A stretch of DNA of 32,000 bases from Psychrobacter sp. DM4. Lineage in GTDB: Bacteria > Pseudomonadota > Gammaproteobacteria > Pseudomonadales > Moraxellaceae. The stretch is taken from assembly GCF_051307035.1 (NCBI RefSeq), contig NZ_CP195536.1, positions 270,001 through 302,000 of the forward strand, given 5' to 3'. The position numbers were made by a program, and so were the translations under genes. The notes below the pieces were generated by a model. The model was not told the origin of the DNA. It saw only the letters and a program-made list of their open reading frames with translations, and searched no databases. The stretch's first letter is position 1. The number at the start of each line of letters is the position of its first letter. Shown here piece by piece: positions 2,019 to 10,164 of the stretch.

Positions 2019-5000
2019 ATGATGACTATCGCCGGACAGCCATTCTTGACCGACTTTCAAACCCAGCAACTCATCACCCAATTTGCACAAAAGACTGAGC
2101 TACATGTTACTCAAATAAATACGCAACAAGTATACGTGCTATCGCGTGATCTAAACGCTGATGAGCGTAAAAAAGCGCTAGATCTACTGGGTGCAAAAAA
2201 CGAGACGTCCCTCGCTACTACTAAAGATAAGCAAATTCAAGTCATCGTTGGTCCACGTTTTGGCACGATTTCGCCATGGGCGAGTAAAGCGACCGATATC
2301 TTTAATAATTGTGAGCTTGAGATTCACCGCGTTGAGCGCGTTATCGTTTATACATTAACAATTGAGGGTGAAGCAGGCGAAAAACTACCAGTAGACGCTG
2401 AGCAATTATTGTTTGATCGCATGACGCAAAGCTTGGTTTATGATTTGAGTGAAGTGAGCAAGCTATTTGATGACGAACCGCCAGCATCGCTCAATCATAT
2501 CGATGTGATCGGACAAGGTCAGTCGGCGCTAGAATCTGCCAATACGACATTTGGTTTTGCGTTATCAAGTGAAGACATTGATTATCTGATGAATGCGTAT
2601 GTCAATGAGCTTAAGCGCAATCCAACTGACGTTGAGCTGATGATGTTTGCACAGGCGAACTCAGAGCATTGCCGTCATAAGATATTTAATGCCCAATGGA
2701 CAGTCGATGGCGCAGTACAGCCGAAATCACTGTTCCAAATGATTAAGAATACTTATCAGTCGAATCCACAAGGTATCTTGTCGGCTTATAAAGACAACGC
2801 CGCAGTGATGGCTGGGGCAGAAGGGATGCGTTTTTACCCGATTCCTACCGATCCTCAAGATCCTAATTCAGCGCATCCGTATGGCTTCCATCAAGAAGCT
2901 ATCGATATCTTAATGAAGGTCGAAACCCATAACCATCCAACCGCGATTGCTCCTTATGCGGGTGCAGCGACAGGTGCTGGTGGTGAAATTCGTGATGAAG
3001 GCGCGACTGGTCGTGGCGGTAAGCCAAAAGCTGGCTTGACGGGCTTTCACGTATCACACTTGCATATCCCAGAGCTCGCTGAGAAATGGGAGCAGTCAGG
3101 TCAGCTAAGTACTCAGGCTTATGGCACGCCCGATCGTATGGCAACGAGCCTTGAGATTATGACACAAGCACCACTCGGTTCAGCTAACTTCTCTAACGAG
3201 TTTGGGCGTCCAAACTTATGCGGTTATTTCCGTAGTTTCCAATTGGATACCTCAGCGGCAAAAGACGGCAGCGAGATGCGCGGCTATCATAAGCCCATCA
3301 TGCTGGCAGGGGGGTACGGCAATATCAAACGCAATCTCATTGAAAAAAATCCCATTCGCCAGGGTGATTTACTGATCGTCCTTGGTGGCCCTGCGATGCA
3401 AATCGGTCTTGGCGGCGGTGCGGCGTCTTCAGTCGATAGCGGCTCACTTGATGAAGGCTTAGATTTTGCCTCAGTTCAGCGTGACAATGCTGAGATGGAG
3501 CGTCGTTGCCAAGAAGTCCTCGATCGCTGCTGGGCCTTAGCTGGTAATGAAGAGTCGGGTAGTGATGTCGATGCGAGCAATAATGGCAAAGACGGCAACC
3601 CTATCGTGTCATTACATGATGTGGGCGCTGGTGGTATCTCTAATGCAATGCCTGAACTGGTCAATGACCACGAAATGGGCGCGATACTCAACCTGCGTAA
3701 AATTCCGTCGTTAGAAGCTGGCATGTCGCCAATGGCCATCTGGTCAAACGAAGCACAAGAGCGTTATGTCCTCGCGATTCGTCCAGAAAGCGAAGCCCAA
3801 TTCGACGCAATCTGTGCGCGTGAGCGCTGCCCGTATGCCATCTTGGGTACAGCTACGGATGTGCGTCAATTGGTGGTTAACGATTCGCTGCTAGATGAGC
3901 AACCTGTCGATATGCCGATGCAAGTATTGCTCGGTGGCACGCCAAAGATGAAGCGTAGCTTTGAGCGTACCGAGAGCACGTCACCAGCATTAGAGCTTGG
4001 TGATGTGAATTTAGCTGAGTCTATTACTGATGTGCTGCGTCACCCAACCGTCGCTAGTAAGTCATTTTTGATTAGCATTGGTGATCGCTCTATCACGGGC
4101 ATGGTCGTGCGTGATCAGTATGTGGGTCGCTATCAAGTGCCCGTGGCAGATTGCGCGGTGACAGCGTCAGGATTGATCGCGCTTGATGGTCAGGTGATGA
4201 GCGGCGAGGCCATGAGTATCGGTGAGCGTACACCAGTGGCGCTTATCAGTCCAAAAGCTTCTGCGCGTTTAGCAGTGGGTGAAGCAATTACCAACATCGC
4301 TGGCGCGCGTATTGCTCAGTTGTCTGATATCACGATGTCAGCGAACTGGATGGCAGCATGCGGTGATGATGCAGAAGATGCGGCACTATTCGATGCGGTA
4401 CATGCCGTCGGTGAAGAGCTGTGCCCAGCACTCGGTATCGCTATCCCAGTCGGTAAAGACTCGCTATCGATGCGTGCTAACTGGACAGACAGCAGTGAAG
4501 AAGGTGATACGGATAAATCAGTCGTGTCACCAATGAGCTTGGTAATTACCGCGTTTGCTCCTGTGGTTGATGTGGCAAAAACGCTAACGCCTGAGCTAAT
4601 CAATGGCGATAGCGCGTTCTACCGTATTGATTTGTCTAAAGGTAAATTGCGTTTAGGCGGCTCAATCCTTGCGCAAACGCTTAGCCAATTGAGTAACGAT
4701 TGCCCAGATCTAGCACAGCCAAGCGACTTGATCGACTTCTTTAACTTTATCCAAGCGGGTAACGCGCAAGGCGTCATCAGCGCTTATCACGATATCGGTG
4801 ATGGTGGTCTGCTTGCAACTATCGCAGAGATGCAGTTCACTAGCCGTCAGGGTATCAAGCTTTCATTAAATGACGATAACTTACTCGGTCAGCTGTTCAG
4901 TGAGGAGCTGGGTGCAGTTATCCAAGTATTGCCAGAAAACGTCGCTGCTCTAATGCAATTGGCAGAAGAGTTTAACGTTGCTGATATGCTGAGTCTCGTT

Positions 5001-6044
5001 GGTCAAAGCTCTGAAGAAGACAGCTTACTTATCCAAACGCCTTTGCACATGGGTGATGATACCTTACGCTTTAGCCGTACTGAGTTACAGCAAGCGTGGA
5101 CGCAGGTTAGCTATCAGATCGCGCGCCGCCGTGATAATCCAGCGTGCGTACAGCAAGAGTATGACCTAATCAGTGATGACAGTCACAAAGGCCTAATCGC
5201 TGCGCCAAACTTTGATCTCAATCAAAAGGTTGAAGCACCTTATGTAAGCAGCCGTGCTGATGCTAATAACAGCCAACCAAGAGTCGCCATCCTCCGCGAG
5301 CAAGGCGTCAACGGTCAGACAGAAATGGCAGCAGGCTTTACCCAAGCGGGTTTTGAAGCGGTCGATGTACACATGAGCGATCTACTGAGTGGTCGTATCA
5401 ATCTACGTGACTTCGACGGTCTGGTCGCGTGTGGTGGCTTTAGTTATGGTGATGTATTGGGCGCAGGCTCTGGCTGGGCGAACTCTATCCTGTTCCATGA
5501 CGAGTTACGCATGCAGTTTGTGCGCTTCTTTGCCCGTCCTGATACCTTCTCACTAGGCGTCTGTAATGGCTGTCAGATGATGGCTCAGTTAAAAGACCTC
5601 ATCCCAGGTGCAGATAATTTCCCACGCTTCATCGCCAACCAATCGGCTCGTTTTGAGGCGCGTACGGTCAATGTCAAAGTCGAGCGTACCAAGTCCATCC
5701 TATTCAAAGGCATGCAAGATAGTATCTTACCGATTGCTGTCGCCCATGGGGAAGGCTACGCCACGCTTAACGAGACCGAAATCGATGGCATGTCCAAACA
5801 CGGTCAGCTAGCGATGCGTTATGTCGATAGCCAAGGTCATCCTACTGAGACTTATCCGCTCAATCCAAACGGCTCGCTCGGCGGTGTCACGGGTCTGTGT
5901 AGTACTGATGGTCGCGTCACTATCATGATGCCGCATCCTGAGCGTAACTTAAAAGCCTATAACCACAGCTGGAAACCAGAAGCGTGGGATGAGGACGGTG
6001 CGTGGATGCGTATGTTCCGTAATGCGCGGGCTTGGTTGCGTTAA
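2019..6044 (+). CDS. purL: Phosphoribosylformylglycinamidine synthase (large single-chain FGAM synthase)
   Basis: 1341-aa ORF with an AGGAA RBS 10 nt upstream. It has FGAM synthetase-type blocks and a C-terminal glutaminase domain with the nucleophile motif GVCNGCQMM and MPHPER. Confidence 0.97.
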   Translation: MMTIAGQPFLTDFQTQQLITQFAQKTELHVTQINTQQVYVLSRDLNADERKKALDLLGAKNETSLATTKDKQIQVIVGPRFGTISPWASKATDIFNNCELEIHRVERVIVYTLTIEGEAGEKLPVDAEQLLFDRMTQSLVYDLSEVSKLFDDEPPASLNHIDVIGQGQSALESANTTFGFALSSEDIDYLMNAYVNELKRNPTDVELMMFAQANSEHCRHKIFNAQWTVDGAVQPKSLFQMIKNTYQSNPQGILSAYKDNAAVMAGAEGMRFYPIPTDPQDPNSAHPYGFHQEAIDILMKVETHNHPTAIAPYAGAATGAGGEIRDEGATGRGGKPKAGLTGFHVSHLHIPELAEKWEQSGQLSTQAYGTPDRMATSLEIMTQAPLGSANFSNEFGRPNLCGYFRSFQLDTSAAKDGSEMRGYHKPIMLAGGYGNIKRNLIEKNPIRQGDLLIVLGGPAMQIGLGGGAASSVDSGSLDEGLDFASVQRDNAEMERRCQEVLDRCWALAGNEESGSDVDASNNGKDGNPIVSLHDVGAGGISNAMPELVNDHEMGAILNLRKIPSLEAGMSPMAIWSNEAQERYVLAIRPESEAQFDAICARERCPYAILGTATDVRQLVVNDSLLDEQPVDMPMQVLLGGTPKMKRSFERTESTSPALELGDVNLAESITDVLRHPTVASKSFLISIGDRSITGMVVRDQYVGRYQVPVADCAVTASGLIALDGQVMSGEAMSIGERTPVALISPKASARLAVGEAITNIAGARIAQLSDITMSANWMAACGDDAEDAALFDAVHAVGEELCPALGIAIPVGKDSLSMRANWTDSSEEGDTDKSVVSPMSLVITAFAPVVDVAKTLTPELINGDSAFYRIDLSKGKLRLGGSILAQTLSQLSNDCPDLAQPSDLIDFFNFIQAGNAQGVISAYHDIGDGGLLATIAEMQFTSRQGIKLSLNDDNLLGQLFSEELGAVIQVLPENVAALMQLAEEFNVADMLSLVGQSSEEDSLLIQTPLHMGDDTLRFSRTELQQAWTQVSYQIARRRDNPACVQQEYDLISDDSHKGLIAAPNFDLNQKVEAPYVSSRADANNSQPRVAILREQGVNGQTEMAAGFTQAGFEAVDVHMSDLLSGRINLRDFDGLVACGGFSYGDVLGAGSGWANSILFHDELRMQFVRFFARPDTFSLGVCNGCQMMAQLKDLIPGADNFPRFIANQSARFEARTVNVKVERTKSILFKGMQDSILPIAVAHGEGYATLNETEIDGMSKHGQLAMRYVDSQGHPTETYPLNPNGSLGGVTGLCSTDGRVTIMMPHPERNLKAYNHSWKPEAWDEDGAWMRMFRNARAWLR

Positions 6045-6177
6045 GATATAAGGTAATTTGTTCTAAGGTATAGTTTTAGATAGCTGTTTTTTAAAATAAG
6101 AAGGTGGGCTTAGGCTCACCTTTTTTGTGTTTGGGATTTGGGTTTTTGAGAAATAGGGGAGCTAATCCCGCCTTTCG
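5967..6177 (+). repeat. Direct repeat copy 1: purL 3' end (last 26 codons), terminator and about 50 nt beyond
   Basis: The first 59 nt are identical to 7023-7081. The rest of the coding part differs only by three synonymous third-position changes and the stop codon. The non-coding tail is homologous with indels, ending near cccgccttt (6168-6177). Confidence 0.9.
6099..6127 (+). terminator. Rho-independent terminator of purL
   Basis: Stem ggtgggc / ggctcacc (one G.U pair) with loop ttag, followed by tttttt (6121-6126). Confidence 0.7.
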
Positions 6178-6184
6178 CTTGTAT

Positions 6185-6282
6185 CTGCCAGTCTGGGCGA
6201 GGCGCTGGCTACGGTTTGGGTCGTCGCTTGCTCCGCGTCGACACCCCAAAACCTACCCATCGCAACTCGCCCAAACCAGCAG
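6185..6282. repeat. GC-rich imperfect palindrome (two arms of about 42 nt, 12-nt centre) of unknown function
   Basis: By hand alignment, 6185-6226 pairs with 6239-6282. About 32 of 42 opposed positions are Watson-Crick, with a 2-nt bulge at 6260-6261. Five of the ten mismatches are C.A, which would be G.U on a minus-strand fold. It is much more GC-rich than the surrounding intergenic DNA. Confidence 0.6.
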
Positions 6283-6360
6283 GATACCGCTACAGTCGGT
6301 GCTAAACCGCGCCTCAAGACTACTGTTTATAGTTGGTTTGAAATTTGCTAAAAAATACTA

Positions 6361-6390
6361 TTGGAAATATACGTCAATGACGTATATACT
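6361..6390 (+). promoter_or_regulatory. Candidate higBA promoter with a palindromic operator in the spacer
   Basis: -35 TTGGAA (6361-6366), 18-nt spacer, -10 TATACT (6385-6390). A perfect palindrome atatacgtca-a-tgacgtatat (6367-6387) fills the spacer. AAGGA RBS at 6405-6409. Confidence 0.5.
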
Positions 6391-6416
6391 TGAGAAATAA
6401 CGATAAAGGATTATAG

Positions 6417-6749
6417 ATGCTACATTTTATAGAAACCCCGTTATTTACCAAACAAGTGCTTAAATTGTTGGATGATGATAACTATAAAGAGCTGCAAGCG
6501 GATTTGATAAATAATCCAGACCAAGGGGCTTTAATTCAAGGTACAGGTGGTGTCAGAAAAACTAGATGGGCGCTGAATCAAGGTAAAAGTGGTGGCGTAC
6601 GTATCATCTATTATTTTGTTGATAGTCACGGCATATTTTTTATGTTGCTTGCCTATCCAAAAAATAAAAAGGTCAGTTTATCGAGTCAAGAAAAATCTAG
6701 CTTGTATAAACTAACTCAACAAATCAAAGAGGTATATAATCATGAGTAA
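6417..6749 (+). CDS. higB: Type II toxin, RelE/ParE superfamily, HigB-2-like
   Basis: 110 aa. The block GTGGVRKTRWALNQGKSGGVRIIYYF...FFMLLAYPKN matches my memory of Vibrio HigB-2 (GTGGLRKIR....GKRGGSRIIYYF...FYLLTIYGKN). The toxin-first order and 8-nt overlap (ATGAGTAA) with the next gene are typical of higBA. Confidence 0.85.
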   Translation: MLHFIETPLFTKQVLKLLDDDNYKELQADLINNPDQGALIQGTGGVRKTRWALNQGKSGGVRIIYYFVDSHGIFFMLLAYPKNKKVSLSSQEKSSLYKLTQQIKEVYNHE

Positions 6750-7023
6750 TGAATTTTATGATGATCTATCAACGTCATTGAATCAAGCATTAGCAATTGC
6801 CAAAGGGGACGCCCAACCTAGCCGACAGTTTAGTCATGAAATGCCCGATATTAAATTAATTCGTACTAAGACAGGGTTATCGCAACAGCAGTTTGCCGAT
6901 AAGCTAAATATCAGCTCTCGTACTTTACAGAACTGGGAACAAGGGACTAGAAATCCAACAGGGGCGACGATTACGCTTATGCGCTTGTTGGATAAGCAGC
7001 CTGATTTGATTGGTTTGGCTTAA
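6742..7023 (+). CDS. higA: Type II antitoxin, XRE-family HTH, HigA-2-like
   Basis: 93 aa. The C-terminal HTH block [39 protein letters not shown] resembles HigA-2/XRE antitoxins (..TLENWEQGR..P...A..L.RL). It is translationally coupled to higB. Its stop codon TAA (7021-7023) abuts the start of repeat copy 2. Confidence 0.85.
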
Positions 7024-7100
7024 GCTGGAAACCAGAAGCGTGGGATGAGGACGGTGCGTGGATGCGTATGTTCCGTAATGCTCGTGCTTGGTTGCGATAG
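7023..7100 (+). pseudogene. Displaced orphan 3' fragment of purL (last 25 codons plus stop)
   Basis: It translates to [25 protein letters not shown], identical in protein to the purL C-terminus. There is no upstream purL body. It differs from 5967-6044 only by gcg>gct, cgg>cgt, cgt>cga and taa>tag. Confidence 0.9.
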
Positions 7101-7130
7101 ACTGGTTTGATTTGGTTGTTTTAGATAATA

Positions 7131-7160
7131 AAAAAGGTGGGCTTCGGCTCACCTTTTTTG
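7131..7160 (+). terminator. Second copy of the purL-type terminator
   Basis: aaaaaaggtgggc-ttcg-gctcacc followed by tttttt. It has a UUCG-type tetraloop. Confidence 0.65.
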
Positions 7161-7402
7161 TGTTTGGAATTTGCTTTTATTTGGGAGCATTTCCCGCCTT
7201 TTTATTTCAAGCGTGAACTTTGTCCATTACGACAGAAAAAATTTTTCTTAACAATTAACGTGTTTTCCATTACAGAAGAAACATTCGCATAATGAGAAGT
7301 AATTGCTGACTTTATGCGTTTAGTATATTATAAATAATCAAGGCAACTACTTATTACCCTATAGAATTGCTGGATTAGCAAGTTCTAGCTTGTATAAGGA
7401 CT

Positions 7403-7618
7403 ATGGCAATGAACATTGTAAACAAAGCACTTAATATATTTGCAAACCCGAAAGGTTGTAAAAAAGATATGAATGAGCGTCTTATCGTTGACGAATATGG
7501 TAACTTACGTGTGAACTATGAGAACAAGAGTGTGCAAGAGGGAATGACAAAGCAGATCCAAGCATTGAAAAGAATGGAAGCCAGAAAATTATCTGAAACC
7601 GAGGGTGAAGCTGGTTAG
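7403..7618 (+). CDS. Hypothetical small soluble protein (71 aa), first gene of an AT-rich two-gene cassette
   Basis: An AAGGA RBS lies just upstream (a second in-frame ATG at 7409 has better spacing). A possible promoter is TTGCTG (7303-7308), 17 nt, TATTAT (7326-7331). The protein is hydrophilic and I recognise no family. Its stop is 6 nt before the next ORF. Confidence 0.45.
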   Translation: MAMNIVNKALNIFANPKGCKKDMNERLIVDEYGNLRVNYENKSVQEGMTKQIQALKRMEARKLSETEGEAG

Positions 7619-7624
7619 TGTACT

Positions 7625-8401
7625 ATGGGCCTATTAGCAGTAGTATATATTTTAATTTTAGGATATATGGAGGCGTCGTCTAAGCCTACTAAAAAAAACG
7701 TACTTAGACGCAGTGCTGGGTGGGAAGCATATGTTTATTTAGCTTCTAATGGCGTAAGCGTTATTATAGGTGGGATGTGCATCTATTTTTTCGGTTACCT
7801 AGTCTCGTGGATAATAAATTGGATTATAGAAACTATTTCATTATGTGTTTTTCACTCTGCTTTCAGCACTCTAGCATGGTCAAACGAAAAGATATTTAGT
7901 ATCAAACTTTTTAATGAACATCCTATTTATTTTCATGCATTGATAGTCGCTTTTTTTGCATGGATCGTTTGTGAGGGACAAAAGGGGCCCAATAATTCAG
8001 AAGATGATTATAAATCACTTATGGGCCTAGATGGTGTTCTAAATATAGTTATCCACGCTATGCAGAAAGACTCTTTTGTCAAGGTTTCTCTAAAATCTCG
8101 AAAGGTATACATTGGTTTTGTAGTAAGCGAACAATTTAATAATGTTGATTTAGAAAATATAATGATTATTCCATTTTTAAGTGGATATAGAGATAAAGAT
8201 TTACTTACATTGATCACTAATTGCAATTACATGCCTATGTACGAAAAAAACAAATTTTTAGATGATAATGATAAAGTAAACTCTGAAAAAATTGATGACT
8301 TGAAGATGCTTATTAGAGTTGATGAGATTGAAACTATATCCCTTTTTGATCCTCTCTACTATGAAGATTTTGAAACCTATGATGCCTCTAGACTAGTATA
8401 G
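7625..8401 (+). CDS. Hypothetical polytopic membrane protein (258 aa) with a cytoplasmic C-terminal domain
   Basis: Three or four hydrophobic segments: GLLAVVYILILGY, VSVIIGGMCIYFFGYLVSWIINWII, ISLCVFHSAFSTLAW and IYFHALIVAFFAWIV. They are followed by a soluble region of about 140 aa containing an Sm-like strand pattern (FVKVSLKSRKVYIGFVV...DLENIMIIP) and a terminal MLIRVDEIETISLFD. The sequence is very AT-rich (23 G+C in the 100 nt 8101-8200 by hand count). Confidence 0.6.
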   Translation: MGLLAVVYILILGYMEASSKPTKKNVLRRSAGWEAYVYLASNGVSVIIGGMCIYFFGYLVSWIINWIIETISLCVFHSAFSTLAWSNEKIFSIKLFNEHPIYFHALIVAFFAWIVCEGQKGPNNSEDDYKSLMGLDGVLNIVIHAMQKDSFVKVSLKSRKVYIGFVVSEQFNNVDLENIMIIPFLSGYRDKDLLTLITNCNYMPMYEKNKFLDDNDKVNSEKIDDLKMLIRVDEIETISLFDPLYYEDFETYDASRLV

Positions 8402-8474
8402 TTGACGCTTACTTCTGACTCAACGCAGGTCAATAAAAGAATTTACGTTGTTTTATTTCAGTATTTTCTTCCAA

Positions 8475-8666
8475 TTATTCATCCTCCAAACCCTTCTTCG
8501 CCTCAGCCATCAACTCCTTTACCCGAGCACTCTCCCTAAGCACACAAGCCTCATATTCAGACAGCGATTCACCTTCTTGTTGTTGCTGATTTTCCTGCTC
8601 TTCTTTAGCTTTGGCTTCTAGATACTCTTCAAGTTTTTGTTGTTCATCTTGCTGTGAATGACTCAT
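8475..8666 (-). CDS. Hypothetical small acidic coiled-coil-like protein (63 aa)
   Basis: Strong RBS (TAAGGAG, 6 nt before the ATG). The composition is E/Q/K-rich and I recognise no family. It sits directly downstream of the GATase pseudogene on the same strand. Confidence 0.45.
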   Translation of the reverse strand: MSHSQQDEQQKLEEYLEAKAKEEQENQQQQEGESLSEYEACVLRESARVKELMAEAKKGLEDE

Positions 8667-8682
8667 GACTGACTCCTTATAC

Positions 8683-9354
<672 letters not shown>

Positions 9355-9393
9355 AATAGATACCTTGTGCATAAAAACAGTCAAGGAAATCGC

Positions 9394-10164
9394 TTAACCA
9401 CAAATCTTCAAATACTGACGCACCACATTATCAATCCCTTGCTCAAGCGACTCGATGGTGAAGGCGTGACCAATTGACACTTCCGCGACGTCACCAAGAC
9501 TGAGTAAATCGTCTAAATTGTCCAAGTTCAAATCATGACCCGCATTGACGCGTATACCGTTTTCACTGGCGAGGTTGATGCAATCGCTAAAGCGTTGTTT
9601 GACCTCATCGAAATTACCCTTGCCATCGTTGTTGGCACTGTCATCACTACTGTCATCACTACTATCATAGGTGCGCGCCCATTCCTCGGTATACATCTCG
9701 ATCGTTTGCACATCGCTATCGATAACGGCTTGAATCTGCTCGATATCAGGATCGATAAATACTGCGCAGCGCGTACCAAAGGCTTGTAGCTCATGACTGA
9801 GTTCTGACAACATATCTTTATGCTTGATAATGTCGAAACCATGATCTGAGGTCAGTTGATCTTCGCTGTCTGGCACGAGGGTACATTGATGCGGTTTGAC
9901 CTCACGAATTAGCGATAAAAATTGCTCATTCGGATTGCCTTCGATATTGAATTCGATGTTTTTATAATCTTTTAGAAACTCACTGATATCATAGACATCT
10001 TGGTATCTGATATGACGCTCATCAGGTCTTGGATGCACAGTAAAACCTTTGACCCCTAGATCAATCAGCTTTTTCACAAAGTACAGCAGATTGGGATAAT
10101 CGGTGCCGCGAGAGTTTCTGATTAATGCCAGTTTATTCAAATTCACGCTAAATAGGGTGCTCAT
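9394..10164 (-). CDS. pdxJ: Pyridoxine 5'-phosphate synthase
   Basis: 256 aa. Motifs LALIRNSRG, HPRPDERHI and VNAGHDLN are present. It contains an acidic low-complexity insert, DSSDDSSDDSANNDGKGN. Confidence 0.95.
   Translation of the reverse strand: MSTLFSVNLNKLALIRNSRGTDYPNLLYFVKKLIDLGVKGFTVHPRPDERHIRYQDVYDISEFLKDYKNIEFNIEGNPNEQFLSLIREVKPHQCTLVPDSEDQLTSDHGFDIIKHKDMLSELSHELQAFGTRCAVFIDPDIEQIQAVIDSDVQTIEMYTEEWARTYDSSDDSSDDSANNDGKGNFDEVKQRFSDCINLASENGIRVNAGHDLNLDNLDDLLSLGDVAEVSIGHAFTIESLEQGIDNVVRQYLKICG

Follow-up and report, generated by a model that had tools for sequence, protein, structure and literature searches.

In the window, the name used here for a 32,000-nt stretch of Psychrobacter sp. 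DM4 (contig NZ_CP195536.1, positions 270,001 to 302,000), a cassette of two genes lies downstream of purL. Both open reading frames (ORFs) are on the plus strand, adjacent and co-directional, and a small gene (7409..7618) encoding 69 aa is followed after 6 nt by a large gene (7625..8401) encoding 258 aa. A preliminary description, made from the sequence alone, had reported these two linked ORFs. Both are real, but its 71-aa small protein, which would start at an alternative ATG at 7403, gives way to the 69-aa form. From the alignments, the start at 7409 is most likely, since P. namhaensis has ATA at the position of 7403 and both the homologues and the RefSeq entry are 69 aa long. The database entries WP_201600676.1 (hypothetical protein, 69 aa) and WP_435979752.1 (hypothetical protein, Psychrobacter sp. 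DM4) are identical to the small and the large protein, respectively.

The cassette is AT-rich. The counts given in the preliminary description, 23 G+C in 8101-8200 as compared to 57 in purL 3001-3100, were found to be exact, and the 1-kb segments at 7501 and 11001 tie for the lowest G+C of all 32 kb. The large gene has a G+C content of 32.3% (27% at third codon positions), as compared to 44.7% for the window and 49.8% for purL. Upstream of the small gene, a leader of ~140 nt (7264..7408, plus strand) with a ribosome-binding site (AAGGA, 7395-7399, plus strand) is near-identical in two Psychrobacter relatives, L005 and L006, and is still conserved in P. namhaensis (L009) despite a different left flank there, the gene of an ACT-domain protein. 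That the cassette has its own promoter, as had been proposed, is only plausible from these data: the leader is conserved and a candidate can be picked out by eye (TTGCTG at 7303-7308, a 17-nt spacer and TATTAT at 7326-7331), but a consensus promoter scan returned only a weak site at 7264-7293. No intrinsic terminator was found 3' of the operon (z -0.58), and no Rfam family reached threshold within 5900-9500.

Coupling of the small and large genes

The two genes travel together. Among 39 full-length loci taken from different species, 38 have a homologous, co-oriented small ORF that ends 0-35 nt before the large gene or overlaps its start by 1 nt; this association persists down to ~25% identity, and overlapping small and large genes occur among the phage copies. 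Many of the remote DUF6338-like relatives of the large protein (in Bacteroidota, Bdellovibrionota, Alphaproteobacteria and others) are also preceded by an analogous small ORF. Divergence of the small protein was found to follow that of the large one (Mantel r 0.82, with 0 of 2000 permutations as high), and the ratios of nonsynonymous to synonymous substitution (dN/dS) calculated against the P. namhaensis copy, 0.12 for the large gene and 0.14 for the small, indicate purifying selection on both. Because the ORFs are coupled, their divergence is correlated and both are under purifying selection, they are one functional unit, and comparison across loci shows the small and large genes to be coupled and co-inherited.

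In the window, the two ORFs also share a reading frame, with a TAG and 6 nt (two codons) between them. Stop-codon readthrough joining them was considered but not adopted: the gap ranges from -1 to 35 nt at other loci and the frame differs as well, so programmed readthrough seems unlikely.

Several natural variants have lost the large gene or its integrity. Three E. coli P2-like prophages retain the small gene only, with ogr directly after it (for example L089, E. coli O22:H8 strain 154, 4001-4219). In Psychrobacter sp. 5A.1 (L013 10001-10736), the large gene is frameshifted between residues 47 and 63, and in a Xenorhabdus copy (L040) it is interrupted after ~90 codons. All of these decay variants affect the large gene and leave the small gene intact, a pattern that fits a costly or toxic large protein.

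The membrane protein and its small partner

Family-averaged hydropathy places three hydrophobic segments in the large protein, followed by a soluble domain of ~140 residues, in keeping with the three or four transmembrane (TM) segments and soluble C-terminal domain first read from the translation. TM1 (residues 1-17; 7625..7675, plus strand), placed by the same hydropathy profile and by Lys/Arg counts, is followed by a conserved cytoplasmic, Lys/Arg-rich loop (residues 18-36) with the motif RSxGWExY. TM2 (residues 44-72; 7754..7840, plus strand) is a single long helix by hydropathy, modelled as helix 33-76, and TM3 (residues 100-116; 7922..7972, plus strand), placed by hydropathy and charge distribution, corresponds to modelled helix 100-118. 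Since the Lys/Arg-rich loop comes after TM1, the positive-inside rule predicts an N-out/C-in topology with a cytoplasmic C-terminal domain.

The AlphaFold2 model of the large protein, with a predicted local distance difference test (pLDDT) score of 82, contains a beta-rich domain at residues 137-250 (8033..8374, plus strand), in which the motifs LKSRKxYxG and IPxxSGYRD are invariant. This domain is predicted to adopt an Sm/LSm-like fold, in which a helix at the N-terminal side precedes a strongly bent sheet of five beta-strands. In a Foldseek search against the PDB, the top 50 matches were all Sm/LSm proteins, with a probability of ~1.0 for nearly all and a target TM-score mostly of 0.55-0.71, and matches in the viral library BFVD include phage proteins annotated 'Sm-like domain'. 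The Sm-like strand pattern noted in the preliminary description is thus borne out at the level of predicted structure. As compared to Sm/LSm proteins, whose fold it is predicted to share, the domain has an insertion between strands. Sm membership at the level of sequence found no significant support: hhalign against five manually entered Sm sequences gave a probability of 2.5% and a pairwise E value of 0.019. This alignment pairs helix plus VKVSLKSRKVYIG with VIVRLKGGREFRG, as would be expected, and brings the N-terminal helix and first strands onto the Sm1 motif. A PDB sequence search with the profile of the large-protein family returned nothing.

Invariant residues of the family, which include W33, Y36, G43, S158, K160, Y162, G164, P183, S186, G187, Y188 and R189, are confined to the cytoplasmic parts. 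Conservation in the family concentrates on the cytoplasmic loop and the Sm-like domain, and the TM helices are conserved in hydrophobicity alone. The large protein matches phrog_3630 over its full length (E 3.5e-48; residues 1-255 against profile positions 1-254 of 274) and belongs to that family, PHROG 3630 (with phrog_23864), which has no functional annotation and whose record says nothing of a small partner or an Sm-like fold. A word-indexed search found 53 relatives of the large protein, and 2713 clusters (50% identity) came out of an exhaustive profile search at E ≤ 1e-3, 1571 of them at E ≤ 1e-10. The resemblance to DUF6338 (PF19865) that had been tentatively suggested holds at a distance. 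The architecture is the same, with N-terminal TM helices and a C-terminal soluble domain, and 14 of 42 remote family members match the model (best E 5.4e-5), but at E ≤ 1 no match is obtained for the window protein or for its closer relatives. Judged by these profile matches, the large protein is a distant relative of DUF6338 and not a member by the Pfam model. Because DUF6338 has no assigned function, and no functional literature in the library searched, the relationship adds no mechanism.

The small protein is predicted to be soluble. Its N-terminus is modelled as disordered, residues 25-35 as a beta-hairpin and residues 40-66 as one long helix; the pLDDT of its AlphaFold2 model is 75 overall and 81-93 over residues 21-60. 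Aligned small proteins share an invariant hairpin Gly (G31) and the pattern D..G.h.hN..N..V....h...L. The Pfam and PADLOC searches that had been proposed as checks gave no match for either protein (E ≤ 1 in Pfam for the large protein), nor did a search of NCBIfam, and the fold search, informative for the large protein, returned only noise for the small one (E > 2). No family emerged when 38 small-protein homologues were scanned against Pfam, and the small protein has a weak match to phrog_9843 (E 1.7e-4). When queried alone, the small protein retrieved only five close relatives. Enteric small homologues of 56-74 residues (P0203, P0208, P0216-P0218, P0220, P0222, P0224 and P0226) bear the NCBI name 'multidrug ABC transporter ATPase', which is impossible at this length and looks like a propagated mis-annotation.

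Temperate-phage carriage and the purL-downstream spot

A search of IMG/VR found 167 viral contigs, and 80 loci were fetched. Of these, 51 are P2-like, with the pair in the hotspot between replication gene A and the portal gene. The P2-like hotspot also holds copies in an E. coli prophage, in Klebsiella phage ST15-OXA48phi14.1 and in Salmonella phages SEN4/SEN5, and the gene-A to portal placement recurs in Pantoea, Erwinia and Dryocola genomes. Elsewhere, the pair was found between Mor and a GH108 endolysin in an Aeromonas Mu-like prophage, immediately upstream of the endolysin gene and with a TIR gene nearby; in the head module of Psychrobacter-type prophages, between Mu_F and the S49 protease (46-48% identity); in one tail module, flanked by baseplate and tail fibre genes; in Cronobacter phage phiES15, between integrase and attP; and in Pseudoalteromonas phage C5a, where it lies downstream of the repressor gene in the same orientation. 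Gene context shows the pair to be temperate-phage cargo at at least six positions, which are cargo or lysogeny-expressed ones.

The P2-like hotspot has been shown experimentally to hold anti-phage systems (PMC9122126), and in a 2026 survey 19% of P2 elements had a hotspot lacking a recognisable defence gene (PMC13586616). In the P2-like loci, the pair typically lies 0.8-1.3 kb after gene A, and up to 3.9 kb in a few. To its right, most of these loci contain variable co-oriented cargo, either single proteins of 232-784 aa or small operons, and in 11 of the 51 the pair is the only sizeable cargo. The downstream cargo matches many PADLOC families, including PtuA/AriA/GajA-type ATPases, AbiLi, NsnB and ThsB-like TIR, as well as bSEFIR (E 7e-103), and known defence genes are often neighbours of the pair in this hotspot. 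Across the P2-like IMG/VR loci (L099-L169), the pair may mark a boundary of the swapping region.

On chromosomes the pair is patchy, with 72 loci among 185,579 species representatives. Carriers were found in Psychrobacter, Pasteurellaceae, Neisseria, Snodgrassella, Advenella, Pantoea, Erwinia, Photorhabdus, Xenorhabdus, Proteus, Hafnia, Vibrio and Shewanella, as well as in remote phyla. The neighbours of the bacterial copies are mixed, comprising phage genes (integrases, gene-A nickases, portals, terminase) and housekeeping genes, with few defence genes. Phage carriage and patchiness agree with the cassette's initial portrayal as a foreign, variable module of a small plus a membrane protein.

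Within Psychrobacter, the pair comes right after purL in L005 and L006, without the toxin-antitoxin (TA) module that lies between purL and the cassette in the window, and after purL plus an ACT-domain gene in L009-L012 and L173. To survey this position, 23 metagenomic purL 3' ends were collected via a 41-nt pattern, 20 of them with at least 1.9 kb of downstream sequence. The pair was found in only 1 of the 20 comparable purL loci and the window's TA in none (0 of 20), with other surveyed loci holding different cargo in the same interval. By this comparison, the interval downstream of purL is a variable spot, and the pair is strain-variable there as an islet of ~1.2 kb. In a Psychrobacter-like metagenomic contig (L176), a 131-aa ORF without a Pfam match lies on the minus strand ~330-760 nt past the purL pattern, occupying the interval between purL and a downstream acidic ORF in the pair's stead.

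In the window, purL itself occupies 2019-6044. The TA module consists of a RelE-type toxin gene (6417-6749; PF06296, E 6e-7) and a NadS/helix-turn-helix antitoxin gene (6742-7023; NF041265, E 2e-18). It is followed by the displaced purL fragment of the preliminary description, which is real: a second, 77-nt copy of the purL 3' end (7023-7099, plus strand) repeats purL 5967-6043 at 96%, and a second, 48-nt copy of the purL terminator hairpin (7131-7178, plus strand) repeats 6098-6145 at 90%. The left junction of the cassette, 7023-7178, is colinear with the purL end, terminator and cassette of L005 and L006; on this alignment, it is the ancestral purL end, which stood next to the cassette before the TA element arrived. 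Because relatives have the cassette right after purL without a TA, and none of the 20 purL loci has one, the TA is read as a later, separate insertion. The adjacency of cassette and TA is therefore incidental, and the argument for a defence role that had been drawn from it falls away. From the same alignment, the TA insertion is what brought or created the purL-end duplication. The toxin and antitoxin genes (within 6146-7022) are thus flanked by direct copies of the purL 3' end and terminator, while the relatives have a single copy and no TA. The arrangement looks like tandem accretion of alternative purL-downstream cassettes, for which the purL 3' end may be a site of recombination or integration. 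An integrase was seen neither in the 5.5-10.5 kb part of the window nor at related purL loci.

Several other features adjoin the cassette. A GC-rich element of ~185 nt (6146-6330) has a sub-threshold Rfam match to Flavo-1 RNA on the minus strand at 6160-6307 (34.3 bits as compared to a gathering score of 42; E 9.7e-5). A second Psychrobacter genome has the element at 89% identity (L013 14514-14655), and it is found again after the purL terminator in L176; it may represent a repeat of Psychrobacter or a structured RNA. Directly after the cassette, the closest relatives have an inserted transposase gene (L005 11060-11779; L006 5411-6058), at a point corresponding to ~8440 of the window; by eye, its sequence appears to be of the IS256/Mutator type.

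Converging on the cassette in the window is a 63-aa acidic ORF (8475-8666, minus strand) with no family match. It has two paralogues in P. namhaensis at ~59% identity, and it is a real gene, as copies differ by indels in multiples of 3. As a third gene of the cassette it was rejected: it is a host gene with paralogues, and most comparable loci without the pair have it 3' of purL. Beyond it, a class-I glutamine amidotransferase gene (8682-9390, minus strand) is apparently split into several short ORFs, of which a 58-aa piece matches PF00117 positions 58-101 of 190 (E 1.6e-7). By its sequence it is probably a pseudogene, beside an intact pdxJ (9394-10164).

Possible roles at the inner membrane

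As judged from comparative sequence evidence, the cassette is best explained as an optional cargo ('moron') operon of phage origin, now established in the variable spot downstream of purL in some strains of Psychrobacter. The coupling of the two genes, a cytoplasmic Sm-like surface on a membrane anchor, the cargo and lysogeny positions in phages, the defence hotspot, the patchiness and the stand-alone islets together point toward autonomous action in the lysogen or host at the inner membrane, most likely as a conflict module of the prophage type. That the pair protects the lysogen or host against other phages somehow, whether by abortive infection or by exclusion at entry, is probable.

The form of protection considered first is a membrane-acting, two-component abortive module at the inner membrane, roughly Rex-like, a tentative reading to which we give somewhat less than an even chance. 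In this working model, the Sm-like domains of the large protein would assemble a ring, as do those of Sm, Hfq and the MscS beta-domain, and this ring would cluster 18-21 helices in the membrane. The small hairpin-helix protein would bind the cytoplasmic ring as an inactivating lid or a sensor, and infection by another phage would release or trigger the membrane protein. The basic and aromatic surface of KSRK and SGYRD might be where a nucleic acid or nucleotide binds. Once triggered, the large protein would depolarise or permeabilise the membrane and abort the infection, as lambda RexAB does. Even if the pair is granted to be a membrane-acting abortive module, this exact Rex-like gating scheme is doubtful.

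In lambda, rexAB accompanies cI, and the inner-membrane component is presumed to depolarise the cell. Like the pair, RexAB is two-gene prophage cargo with one soluble cytoplasmic and one polytopic inner-membrane component, expressed in the lysogen, and the C5a copy, downstream of and co-oriented with the repressor gene, resembles the rexAB-cI layout. However, there is no sequence similarity between RexAB and the pair, and the size relation is reversed, the pair's soluble partner being only 69 aa and its membrane protein having a large cytoplasmic domain of its own. PADLOC, which includes Rex models, gave no match to the pair. Other two-gene systems with a TM effector (Kiwa KwaAB, Hydrolase+TM and RT-nitrilase+TM) are likewise short operons in phage or satellite hotspots, and in such systems from the P4 and P2 hotspots the TM protein is the presumed suicide effector (PMC9122126). 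They have no homology to the pair, whose non-membrane partner is tiny and without an enzymatic or sensor domain. By the working model, the pair would nonetheless join a known kind, that of phage-borne, membrane-acting two-gene modules. Identity with the 'HP + 4TMs' system tested from P4 by Rousset et al. (PMC9122126) was rejected, as the sequences are unrelated.

A number of observations weigh against a defence role, or against the working model in particular. Support for defence is circumstantial; ring formation, binding of the small to the large protein and toxicity are all putative steps. The P2-like hotspot and its bSEFIR, TIR and ATPase neighbours favour the defence role first suggested for the cassette, but no enrichment accompanies the bacterial chromosomal copies: among the four nearest neighbours of 37 bacterial loci, mostly housekeeping genes, no excess of defence genes was seen. 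PADLOC-DB 2.0.0 gave no match to the window proteins at E ≤ 1, and none to the E. coli, Klebsiella, Salmonella, Aeromonas and Psychrobacter-prophage homologues at E ≤ 0.1. Because its position after gene A is fairly fixed, the pair could be a semi-conserved phage gene and not swappable defence cargo. No recognisable DNA-binding or sensor domain was found in the small protein, and no Rosetta-stone fusion of the small and large proteins was present among the 237 fetched proteins. Finally, the asymmetry of decay is not significant (p ~0.5 for three hits out of three), as the large gene is a 3.6-fold bigger target.

The main rival is superinfection exclusion at entry, in which the inner-membrane protein would block DNA injection or channel formation without killing the cell, like T4 Imm, P22 SieA and HK97 gp15. 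We consider it unlikely, but the phage-cargo and lysogeny-module positions fit it equally, and one copy sits inside a tail module, with baseplate and tail fibre genes on either side. A similar tail-module position is reported for the exclusion gene of HK97, gp15. TM helices conserved only in hydrophobicity also fit an anchor and not a specific pore. However, known exclusion proteins are usually single, small and membrane-bound, with no soluble partner, and neither a conserved basic and aromatic cytoplasmic surface nor a cytoplasmic partner is obviously needed for such a block. Annotations in Pfam, PHROGs and PADLOC reveal no homology to known Sie proteins.

Another rival is a role outside conflict, in lysogenic conversion or host physiology at the membrane. 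The large protein would, for example, be an ion or osmolyte channel of the MscS kind or a factor in envelope stress, with the small one as a regulatory subunit. MscS has three TM helices, an N-out orientation and a cytoplasmic Sm-like beta domain, all of which the large protein parallels by prediction, and many bacterial copies of the pair lie among transporters and metabolic genes. The resemblance is only topological, however: neither the window protein nor the 42 remote relatives match MS_channel (PF00924), and no transporter family is matched by sequence. Helices that would line a pore are not conserved in sequence, and the very patchy distribution and repeated carriage by phages also weigh against this role, which is distinctly unlikely.

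An addiction module that stabilises the prophage or islet, with the membrane protein as toxin, the small protein as its neutraliser and no anti-phage role, is more improbable still. As in type II TA operons, the two genes are adjacent and co-directional, and the small one, upstream, is closely coupled to the large one or overlaps it (with a gap of 6 nt here and -1 to 35 nt elsewhere); the decay variants drop the large gene and retain the small one, and the unit is kept as an isolated two-gene islet. However, neither partner is homologous to a known toxin or antitoxin family, with no TA-family similarity in Pfam, NCBIfam or PADLOC, and a hairpin with a single helix is not a DNA-binding fold. 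Several species of Pantoea and Erwinia appear to have the pair fixed in the chromosome between housekeeping genes, which suggests a host benefit over purely selfish maintenance. The boundary between addiction and abortive infection is blurred in any case. A part in the carrier phage's own lysis or lysis timing, as a holin- or antiholin-like factor, is highly improbable and was rejected, since an endolysin adjoins the pair in one context only, that of the Aeromonas Mu-like prophage, where the pair is immediately upstream of it, while the P2 hotspot, head, tail, int-attP and repressor-side positions have no annotated lysis gene adjoining and stand-alone chromosomal copies have no phage nearby.

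Returning to the membrane-acting abortive module, its boldest form would make the pair the founder of an undescribed, widespread two-gene anti-phage system of temperate phages, with ~2,700 clusters (50% identity) and an extension into the DUF6338 superfamily across several phyla. As its effector, the system would have an Sm-like ring anchored in the membrane that binds RNA, single-stranded DNA or a nucleotide and gates or drives permeabilisation under the control of a hairpin-helix partner of 60-80 residues. We regard this proposal as speculative, and on present evidence it is doubtful. Literature searches on DUF6338 (PF19865), on phrog_3630 and on Sm-like or LSm proteins in an anti-phage setting found no functional study in the library searched, and a term search of the main text of the DefensePredictor paper gave nothing resembling the pair. 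If true, the proposal would provide the first link of the Sm fold to membrane-level immunity and a function for DUF6338. Test material is at hand in the native Psychrobacter islet, in the E. coli, Klebsiella and Salmonella prophage homologues and in the natural variants that retain the small gene only. If the pair does protect lysogens, the known phage-borne defences would gain a compact (~1 kb) and widely distributed system, PHROG 3630 and the DUF6338 superfamily would have their first function, and an Sm-like domain tethered to the membrane would enter the picture as an effector or sensor of immunity. Some of the P2-like hotspots in which no defence gene is recognisable would then be accounted for as well.

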